Assembly: GCA_964016885.1 (NCBI GenBank)
Contig: OZ024743.1
Coordinates: 339,202,001-339,266,000, forward strand
Direction: 5' to 3'
DNA length: 64,000 nt
Source of the DNA: Eledone cirrhosa
Lineage: Eukaryota
The translations under genes were made by a program, and so were the position numbers. The notes below the pieces were generated by a model that had not been told where the DNA came from, searched no databases, and worked only from the letters and a program-made list of their open reading frames with translations. Shown one piece after another: positions 8,811-10,950 of the stretch. Each line of letters starts with the position of its first letter. The first letter of the stretch is position 1.

Positions 8811-10950
8811 GAAATTAGAAATTGGAATAAATGCTCTGAAATAGCGATCAGTTCCTGTACACAGCTAAGTATTCTATAAGTCTCTAGCTGTGTCATTCTC
8901 GATAAAAGCACTGGATATGTAGTCCTGATGATTTCTAACAAGAATGAAACGCGTAGATTACTTCCCTTGCTTTTATCGAGAATCTAATTGTAATACGTGA
9001 CGTATTCTATTCTATAGCGATTAGGTCTTCAAAATGTTTATTATAAACATACAGAATATTTTCGAATATTCTATGTCTATATTCACATATATATCGCTAT
9101 TTCAGAGCATTTATTCCAATTTCTAATTTCTGCCGGACCGGCAACCGCTCTTTCAAACCAGTTCCTGTACACAGCTAAGTATTCTATAAGTCTCTAGCTG
9201 TGTCATTCTCGATAAAAGCACTGGATATGTAGTCCTGATGATTTCTAACAAGAATGAAACGCGTAGATTACTTCCCTTGCTTTTATCGAGAATCTAATTG
9301 TAATACGTGACGTATTCTATTCTATAGCGATTAGGTCTTCAAAATGTTTATTATAAACATACAGAATATTTTCGAATATTCTATGTCTATATTCACATAT
9401 ATATCGCTATTTCAGAGCATTTATTCCAATTTCTAATTTCTGCCGGACCGGCAACCGCTCTTTCAAACCAGTTCCTGTACACAGCTAAGTATTCTATAAG
9501 TCTCTAGCTGTGTCATTCTCGATAAAAGCACTGGATATGTAGTCCTGATGATTTCTAACAAGAATGAAACGCGTAGATTACTTCCCTTGCTTTTATCGAG
9601 AATCTAATTGTAATACGTGACGTATTCTATTCTATAGCGATTAGGTCTTCAAAATGTTTATTATAAACATACAGAATATTTTCGAATATTCTATGTCTAT
9701 ATTCACATATATATCGCTATTTCAGAGCATTTATTCCAATTTCTAATTTCTGCCGGACCGGCAACCGCTCTTTCAAACCAGTTCCTGTACACAGCTAAGT
9801 ATTCTATAAGTCTCTAGCTGTGTCATTCTCGATAAAAGCACTGGATATGTAGTCCTGATGATTTCTAACAAGAATGAAACGCGTAGATTACTTCCCTTGC
9901 TTTTATCGAGAATCTAATTGTAATACGTGACGTATTCTATTCTATAGCGATTAGGTCTTCAAAATGTTTATTATAAACATACAGAATATTTTCGAATATT
10001 CTATGTCTATATTCACATATATATCGCTATTTCAGAGCATTTATTCCAATTTCTAATTTCTGCCGGACCGGCAACCGCTCTTTCAAACCAGTTCCTGTAC
10101 ACAGCTAAGTATTCTATAAGTCTCTAGCTGTGTCATTCTCGATAAAAGCACTGGATATGTAGTCCTGATGATTTCTAACAAGAATGAAACGCGTAGATTA
10201 CTTCCCTTGCTTTTATCGAGAATCTAATTGTAATACGTGACGTATTCTATTCTATAGCGATTAGGTCTTCAAAATGTTTATTATAAACATACAGAATATT
10301 TTCGAATATTCTATGTCTATATTCACATATATATCGCTATTTCAGAGCATTTATTCCAATTTCTAATTTCTGCCGGACCGGCAACCGCTCTTTCAAACCA
10401 GTTCCTGTACACAGCTAAGTATTCTATAAGTCTCTAGCTGTGTCATTCTCGATAAAAGCACTGGATATGTAGTCCTGATGATTTCTAACAAGAATGAAAC
10501 GCGTAGATTACTTCCCTTGCTTTTATCGAGAATCTAATTGTAATACGTGACGTATTCTATTCTATAGCGATTAGGTCTTCAAAATGTTTATTATAAACAT
10601 ACAGAATATTTTCGAATATTCTATGTCTATATTCACATATATATCGCTATTTCAGAGCATTTATTCCAATTTCTAATTTCTGCCGGACCGGCAACCGCTC
10701 TTTCAAACCAGATCCTGTACACAGCTAAGTATTCTATAAGTCTCTAGCTGTGTCATTCTCGATAAAAGCACTGGATATGTAGTCCTGATGATTTCTAACA
10801 AGAATGAAACGCGTAGATTACTTCCCTTGCTTTTATCGAGAATCTAATTGTAATACGTGACGTATTCTATTCTATAGCGATTAGGTCTTCAAAATGTTTA
10901 TTATAAACATACAGAATATTTTCGAATATTCTATGTCTATATTCACATAT
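8811..10950 (+). mobile_element. Candidate non-LTR retrozyme: 310-bp hammerhead-containing tandem array (~6.8 units) with a 38-bp inverted 5' piece
   Basis: Units start at 8851, 9161, 9471, 9781, 10091, 10401 and 10711. Each has a type I hammerhead. 8811-8848 is the reverse complement of the unit segment ATCGCTATTTCAGAGC...AATTTC. The array is embedded in (AT)n on both sides and has no real ORF. Confidence 0.85.
8895..8983 (+). ncRNA. Type I hammerhead ribozyme (first of 7 copies, period 310 nt)
   Basis: Helix I is GTAGTC(8919-24)/GATTAC(8956-61), extended by a perfect 16-bp ATTCTCGATAAAAGCA/TGCTTTTATCGAGAAT. Core CTGATGA is at 8925-31. Helix II is TTCT-AACA-AGAA. GAAA is at 8946-49. Helix III is the palindromic ACGCGT. 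The GUA cleavage triplet ends at 8955. Confidence 0.88.

Follow-up and report, generated by a model that had tools for sequence, protein, structure and literature searches.

The window, as we call the whole 64,000-nt stretch of DNA analysed here, carries an insertion that we interpret as a non-autonomous, non-coding, non-LTR retrozyme parasitising a Penelope-like element (PLE), and we put the probability of this model as a whole at roughly 0.7. That the hammerhead retrozyme is real is close to certain, and mobilisation of the family by a PLE is hardly less so: the anatomy of the insertions, with head-to-head arms, one tailed end and a (TA)n target, indicates the PLE signature with two start sites. 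In the window, the insertion consists of a long and a short arm within a microsatellite:

8849..10954, + strand: long arm, in which 310-nt units follow each other head to tail for 6.8 copies; it begins at unit position 1 and reaches the "short" end (unit 238-246)
8810..8848, - strand: inverted short arm of 39 nt, the exact reverse complement of unit 245-283 and thus the PLE-type tail alone
9086..9094, + strand: short start site at unit 238-246, an AU run resembling the (TA)n target (array end at ~10946-10954)
9095..9131, + strand: tail, unit 247-283, between the two putative reverse-transcription start sites and mostly single-stranded from unit position 261
4466..8809, no strand assigned: left target, a (TA)n microsatellite with C interspersed near the insertion (repeat and motif counts)
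10955..11824, no strand assigned: right target, the identical microsatellite in like orientation (repeat and motif counts)

Tandem Repeats Finder called the array at 8849-10954 with a period of 310, 6.8 copies and 99% matches, in agreement with the near-identical 310-nt units described in the first-pass annotation. Units 1-6 are identical, and comparison of the units confirmed the reported T>A at 10712, in the partial seventh unit, as the sole substitution; after about 10950 this unit gives way to (TA)n. The absence of an ORF was likewise borne out, the longest ATG ORF in the unit being 30 aa. The unit has a GC content of 0.34 (below 50%) and contains neither a purine run of at least 8 nor a tRNA gene, and the insertion lacks an LTR and a polypurine tract. 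The annotation had placed the start of the insertion at 8849; with the inverted short arm included, the true start is 8810.

The tandem 310-nt units each hold a type I hammerhead, giving seven cores in a row, and the predicted elements of the first unit and its surroundings are as follows:

8919..8961, + strand: type I hammerhead of unit 1, recurring every 310 nt (core pattern, fold and covariation)
8919-8924 with 8956-8961, + strand: helix I, 6 bp
8925-8931, + strand: hammerhead core, part of the type I hammerhead of unit 1
8933-8936/8941-8944, + strand: helix II, beneath a U-U mismatch
8946-8949, + strand: GAAA of the hammerhead core, with the cut predicted after 8955
8949..8954, + strand: palindromic minimal helix III of 6 nt, predicted to pair between two copies (double hammerhead)
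8895..8983, + strand: 16-bp helix, 8895-8910 with 8968-8983, closing the ribozyme domain (fold; 8 of 16 pairs double-changed in an older subfamily)
9013..9100, + strand: long hairpin, unit 165-252, whose 3' side carries the short start site (fold and covarying inner stem)

The core CTGATGA...GAAA-CGCG-TA that the first-pass annotation had reported for all units occurs seven times, with cuts predicted after 8955, 9265, 9575, 9885, 10195, 10505 and 10815. The 6-bp helix I and the perfect 16-bp helix that it described are both present, helix I including one G-U pair. The spacing of the cuts fits its claim of exact 310-nt monomers, although seven cuts yield six full monomers and not seven. Helix I is open toward the flanks and helix II is closed by a loop, which is the type I layout, and a core with a helix I of at least 4 bp was found in only 1 of 3000 shuffled units. 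The monomer folded with a z score of -4.4, and the 310-nt circle reached -67.8 kcal/mol (z -4.2), with 0 of 100 shuffles as good. Helix III has no more than two pairs, A-U and C-G, closing a 2-nt loop, and is absent from both the monomer and the circle folds. When two domains were folded together, the structure of lowest energy was a double hammerhead at -69.9 kcal/mol versus 2 x -31.9, better than two monomers by 6.1 kcal/mol. As helix III is weak, efficient cleavage is predicted to need a dimer and the monomer to cleave poorly, so that an absence of monomer cleavage would not refute the retrozyme reading. A minimal palindromic helix III is described in PMC4209133 as typical of animal type I hammerheads, with a dimer required.

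At gathering score, Rfam gave no match in the window, and an Rfam check of the unit, as proposed in the first-pass annotation, would thus come out negative. The best match was Hammerhead_HH9 at 19.2 bits against a threshold of 52 (23.1 bits for copies of the older subfamily), and the hammerhead lies below the gathering threshold of every Rfam family in the hammerhead clan CL00010; an internal loop is found at the position where Rfam HH9 has one. Among the fixed variants of the young family, 12 of 34 are inside the 43-nt ribozyme and none in the 11 core bases, where about one hit is expected by chance, so that the lack of core variants is weak evidence alone.

The older subfamily is about 70% identical to the young one, colinear with it and has a period of about 320 nt. 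A motif with the canonical core gave 0 matches for this subfamily, and one with a U3-A8 core gave 1,712. Copies were located in four of the stretches:

L159 5717-6520, L122 3229-3688, L141 1341-1891 and L034 8630-9001: older-subfamily copies, with the U3-A8 core and a longer helix III

Between young and old sequences, 17 of 39 pairs change on both sides, a number that none of 500 shuffles reached and for which slid controls gave 0-3; the alignment of 7 young and 3 old rows represents two clades, and the count therefore corresponds to roughly one event per pair and not to independent samples. The double-sided changes include 8 of the 16 outer-helix pairs and the tertiary C3-G8, which became U3-A8, a natural hammerhead variant according to PMC4209133. 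In the hairpin at 9013-9100, the inner stem covaries and the tetraloop UUCG is replaced by GCAA in the older subfamily. The longer helix III is palindromic in L122 and L034 and imperfect in L159; at least three helix II variants are present, and the arrays seem shorter. Judged from these alignments, the ribozyme structure is conserved across 30% divergence.

A 16-nt pattern of the ribozyme core had 19,077 matches in the genome and a 37-nt core pattern had 4,541 exact matches in the 3.0 Gb, both with 0 matches for the control. We estimate about 2,200 insertions, covering 5.9 Mb or about 0.2% of the genome; the number is rough, as it is based on the mean of 8.8 units in 85 insertions, and single-arm and very long insertions lie outside that mean. 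The first-pass annotation had expected dispersed arrays in contrast to a single-locus satellite, and its retrozyme reading holds for what we found: a young family without coding capacity, whose tandem type I hammerhead repeats are dispersed over many loci. The recent insertion that it proposed agrees with the youth of the family, and its rolling-circle reverse transcription is a step that we infer from the pattern of variants described below. Among listed public sequencing runs, the unit was found in 6 runs from 4 studies, none of them an RNA run, and metagenome contigs had 0 matches. Four organism labels among the runs could suggest horizontal transfer, for which we see no support: of four runs mapped on L102, three had one 340-nt contig at a depth of 10-15 together with scraps of a host PLE, as trace host DNA would give, and one was deep. 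A wrap-round 340-nt contig was rejected as a sign of a circle, since any tandem repeat gives such a contig.

The insertion anatomy was studied in 10 stretches picked by the ribozyme core alone and 100 picked by end motifs, those outside the window all coming from the first 220 Mb (the first half) of contig C1. In the core-picked stretches, all 18 arm 3' ends were at unit 246 (9) or at 272-277 (9), and all ends except the two of L034 enter TA-rich sequence. Genome-wide, exact junctions into (TA)n numbered 1,059 for the tail and 1,242 for the short end, with 0 for the reversed controls. The pairing of ends was assessed for 100 listed short ends and for 84 listed tail ends, those of 100 that fell in the same range. 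Among the matches listed, 55 of the 84 tail ends were paired outward with a short end within 20 kb, 27 had no listed partner and 2 were otherwise arranged, tail-tail pairs numbering 0 and short-short pairs 1. Twenty unpaired tail loci resolved into 15 whose other arm had a variant short end, 4 that were single-armed and 1 extending beyond the stretch; of 30 unpaired loci picked by the short end, 20 had the other arm end at 272-279, 9 were single-armed and 1 continued beyond the stretch. Most insertions examined thus lie in (TA)n and consist of two arrays that meet at their 5' ends, only one of the two outer ends being tailed. The tail extends 26-37 nt past unit 246, or up to 8 nt more if the AU run is counted, and is present at one end only; the outer end of the short arm is unit 283 in the window and 272-279 for family ends at other loci.

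The expectation in the first-pass annotation of variable array start points was not upheld: the arrays end at one of two fixed sites, and variation is confined to the inner 5' junctions. The inner head-to-head junctions mostly show an overlap or a gap of a few bases (53 of 58 junctions kept, the other 5 being complex, atypical or cut by the stretch edge). At L037 3099-3370, about 270 nt of unrelated C-rich sequence stand between the arms, possibly captured or inserted later. The 5' ends are scattered round the unit with mild unevenness (KS p 0.007), and the ribozyme cut site holds 3 of 208 of them in comparison with 4.7 expected; linear cleaved monomers were rejected as the template because the 5' ends form no peak at the cut. 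Nor did the ends point to a transcription start at unit position 1, with 6 ends at 309-3 versus 3.35 expected (p 0.12). At least one cut site is crossed by 100 of 106 arms and two by 86 of 106, and the longest arm has about 48 units. Neither outer end is at the ribozyme cut, and the two fixed internal ends come without poly(A) or a terminal repeat. A SINE mobilised by a LINE was considered and dropped on account of the two fixed internal ends, neither of which is at the cut.

TA-rich flanks were found at 191 of 205 ends, a proportion inflated by selection as most loci were picked by a pattern containing (TA)n, and any target-site duplication is masked by the (TA)n flanks. In the window, 500 nt of each flank contain 32 (left) and 37 (right) copies of ATCT and 0 and 0 of AGAT. 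The equal orientation of the flanks indicates that the (TA)n tract existed beforehand and was split by the insertion; for the same reason we rejected an origin of both (TA)n flanks by telomerase-like synthesis starting at either end.

These characters can be compared with those of PLEs. Craig et al. 2021 (PMC8557442) name among the PLE traits a 5'-truncated inverted copy, a tail of 30-40 bp on one end and a preference for (TA)n; all of these are present here, the tail measuring 26-37 nt. Frangieh et al. 2024 (PMC11167929) showed in vitro that both strands of the target are nicked and extended by a PLE protein, with synthesis starting at two neighbouring internal positions, one on either side of the tail. 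The retrozyme thus shares with EN+ PLEs the 5' truncation, the inverted 5' copy, the single tailed end, the (TA)n targets, the two adjacent internal start sites and a hammerhead upstream of them. It differs in having no ORF and arms of up to tens of units, and in that the tailed and untailed ends on opposite arms, with one haplotype, tie both arms to one RNA, which is unreported in the available text of PMC8557442 and PMC11167929. Non-autonomous Chlamys elements such as MRC1 (PMC8557442) also parasitise PLEs, are non-coding and insert as multiple head-to-tail copies. Unlike the retrozyme here, they share their 3' end sequence with their helpers, and a canonical hammerhead is missing from most Chlamys elements.

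To distinguish between templates, we compared variants among the units and arms of each insertion. Repeated reading of a monomer should place a change of that monomer in all units of both arms, whereas a multimer should pass a change on once per arm, at an equal lap. In 85 insertions totalling 225,403 nt (4 more were skipped, their anchor being altered), we counted 133 variants fixed in every unit of both arms, 128 in a single unit, 7 partial and 2 mirrored. The insertions represent 33 haplotypes, and the arms were concordant in 60 of the 61 informative cases. Private fixed variants numbered 19, in comparison with 12-15 expected from one donor unit each (0.14-0.18 single changes per unit), some of which may be rare subfamilies, and 16 private variants were fixed in both arms across at least 3 units. 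In-register changes common to both arms occurred in 3 insertions, whereas multimeric donors with today's variant density would give 32 events, a number that would be smaller for donors that were young and homogeneous. Overdispersion of the single-unit changes among insertions (p 4e-10) suggests that they are partly age-related and that the donors may have been cleaner than today's arrays. Variants fixed in both arms and few in-register changes are as expected if one monomer is read repeatedly, and we consider a circular monomer quite likely to be the usual template. Five of the 85 insertions misfit a single monomer and need a multi-unit template or a template switch. In L128 (503-6904), the first two laps of both arms show one common haplotype and the later laps another, and it is a two-template or mosaic-template event; L117 and L187 have a first-lap change common to both arms, and in L146 and L159 the arms differ.

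By the proposed mechanism, genomic arrays would be transcribed as multimers, in which adjacent hammerheads are predicted to pair via the palindromic helix III and excise 310-nt monomers; a lone monomer would be stable, as it cannot form helix III. A host ligase would close the circle, as in published retrozymes. The observed anatomy points to a PLE reverse transcriptase-endonuclease that would nick both (TA)n strands and prime twice on one RNA, at unit 238-246 and at 272-283. From the variants, both cDNAs would circle the template, on average 3.7 and 5.5 times, before ending at scattered positions, and their far ends, whose joint is seen in the insertions, would be joined head to head into two inverted arrays with tailed and untailed outer ends. 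In the window, one arm would have made 6.8 laps and the other copied the 39-nt tail alone. We hold it somewhat likelier than an even chance that the insertions are a genomic record of such double rolling-circle reverse transcription, in which the PLE primes both nicked strands on one 310-nt circle, 26-37 nt apart, and makes up to ~48 copies per arm.

The closest rival to the reading of circles is that the PLE mobilised long multimeric transcripts left uncleaved, from a small number of young and homogeneous donor arrays, with the ribozyme a passenger or of occasional use. In vitro, ribozyme mutants insert normally and unprocessed RNA is the main substrate (PMC11167929); the arms of L128, L117 and L187 each read one non-uniform series of units, and clean donors exist, as 22 of the 60 insertions of at least 1.5 kb have no single-unit substitution. 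Against it, arrays copied from a linear multimer can only become shorter, and a new change has no way of reaching all units; the 16 private variants nevertheless are fixed in both arms, an arm of ~48 units exists, and the ribozyme structure has been retained across the divergence of the two subfamilies. We regard this route as unlikely for the family in general, and it probably accounts for a minority of insertions. A short PLE-type insertion could also have grown in place later by unequal crossing-over or slippage, like a satellite, as in the model of bioRxiv 10.64898/2026.07.22.740005. The arrays are within unstable microsatellites, paired arm lengths are weakly correlated (Spearman 0.32, p 0.02), and homogeneity within arms would be expected. 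Such growth should leave nested shared variants, and only 7 partial variants stand against the 128 in single units; the arm lengths fit an exponential distribution (KS p 0.11), as for enzyme fall-off, and both inverted arms would have to expand with one haplotype, all of which makes growth in place very improbable.

Still lower is the standing of mobilisation by a LINE, either the RTE-like or the Tx1/L1-like elements of the window, with the inversion explained by twin priming. Both LINE types have long ORFs nearby, and LINE twin priming yields 5' inversions. The second primer in twin priming is placed at variable upstream sites, whereas both outer ends are here fixed, 26-37 nt apart, without poly(A) or a terminal repeat and with neither at the ribozyme cut, and PLE copies at those loci have a like head-to-head tailed form. 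The least probable of the explanations, to which we attach almost no weight, is that the hammerhead match arose by chance in an ordinary satellite, or that the assembly is at fault: the missing Rfam match at gathering score would fit it, but the motif's rarity in shuffled units, the compensatory changes in core and helices, the thousands of dispersed loci with distinct haplotypes and the recurrence of the unit in sequencing runs of several studies do not.

With PLE-mobilised circles as the preferred reading, the family resembles the retrozymes of coral, mussel, axolotl and newt (satellite 2) of Cervera and de la Pena 2020 (PMC7229834), which are tandem AT-rich non-coding repeats of 150-450 bp with a type I hammerhead per unit, likewise have thousands of copies and a self-paired monomer and, in axolotl HHR_Amex2, also have a U-U mismatch at the helix II base and cleave better as a dimer. 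RNA circles were shown there; here the family is known from the genome only, but its insertion anatomy is defined. PLE mobilisation is proposed in PMC7229834 from co-occurrence only, its main text not using the words "inverted" or "microsatellite", and a PLE link of retrozymes is also proposed in PMC7761336. Li, Clavereau and Pollet (bioRxiv 10.64898/2026.07.22.740005) reach a like conclusion, that retrozymes depend on PLEs, from co-occurrence and pseudo-LTR homology in Xenopus and discuss local tandem amplification, the available text being without "tail" or "target site"; in the about 1 Mb read we found no matching pseudo-LTR, and our variant pattern argues against local growth. In the literature searched, mostly outside subscription journals and as main texts apart from supplements (such as the life-cycle model in Fig. 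S9 of PMC7229834), we found no prior description of tailed head-to-head retrozyme insertions or of a test of fixed versus mirrored variants.

Retrozyme copying into new sites was proposed earlier and is not shown in the literature searched, and the origin of the inverted arm and tail in PLE insertions is still listed as open. If true, our model would give direct evidence, from a genome, that the mobility of animal retrozymes relies on their circles and on PLE machinery, and would explain the inverted-plus-tail structure of PLEs generally as two cDNAs from one RNA. The mechanistic evidence is unusually clear. The family is very young and tagged by haplotypes, so that each insertion records the template read by each arm, and it yields exact start sites (unit 246 and 272) and a 310-nt minimal substrate. 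The test of fixed versus mirrored variants is purely computational and applicable to any long-read genome that contains retrozymes. Further hammerhead repeat families of this genome are built alike with other tail lengths, and the tail length may thus identify the helper.

Two PLE-type frames are present in the window, and a further Hydra-like family was found in other stretches:

47082-54118: PLE with a 1,282-aa RT and GIY-YIG frame at 47638-51486 (- strand) and an inverted 5'-truncated copy
47342 (- strand), 51634 (- strand) and 53946 (+ strand): type I hammerheads of the 1,282-aa-frame PLE, its own ribozyme
27119-30200: Hydra-like PLE with a 698-aa frame at 27399-29495 and a 246-nt inverted terminal repeat
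L204 274-7583, also L173, L179, L185 and L201-L203: Hydra-like PLE family with a ribozyme matching that of the retrozyme in 26 of 28 nt; 8,084 motif matches

The clade names Hydra-like and Neptune/Poseidon-like are readings of the domain order, Pfam having given no family in three PLE frames. Named hits of a homologue search reached only 34-38% identity, and the repeat landscape resembles that of octopod cephalopods. In the about 1 Mb of 3 Gb read, we found no autonomous PLE with the tail of the retrozyme; those of the PLE families observed measure about 58 and 72 nt, the retrozyme's similarity to the 3' end of the Hydra-like PLE is limited to the ribozyme's 26 of 28 nt with no matching pseudo-LTR, and further PLE fragments had no visible match to the retrozyme. 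Both candidate helpers were rejected for a differing tail: the 1,282-aa-frame PLE, which forms tiny head-to-head insertions (L102 289-505, L160 3000-3183), has one of about 58 nt and the L204-type family one of about 72 nt. In the latter, the ORF and the 3' end are also separated by a long stretch filled with microsatellites, and the cleavage-side helix looks atypical. In the window, a decayed relative of the Hydra-like PLE is at 31413-33500, with a hammerhead-like motif at 33409, and a 70-nt direct repeat (30377-30446 and 27023-27092), beside (TA)n, flanks the Hydra-like PLE.

Two additional hammerhead repeat families were observed. One has a period of about 466 nt (L156 2307-3889 and L158 1781-6829, with 11 cores in L158); its arrays lie head to head within (TA)n and carry a tail of about 74 nt. 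The other has a period of about 500 nt, divergent arms and a tail of about 59-68 nt (L083 160-1525, L183 2921-4549 and L075). The window itself begins with a G-skewed tandem repeat (1-4400) with a period of about 500 nt and 213-nt sub-repeats. Several young, near-identical Tx1/L1-like LINE copies stand in tandem at 12276-24181 and 54347-57803, with a 1,153-aa ORF2 at 18923-22384 and one inverted copy that is 99% identical across 3.2 kb. At 61614-63857 there is a fragment of an RTE-like LINE, in which an RT is followed by a PHD-like finger with a Pfam score at threshold.
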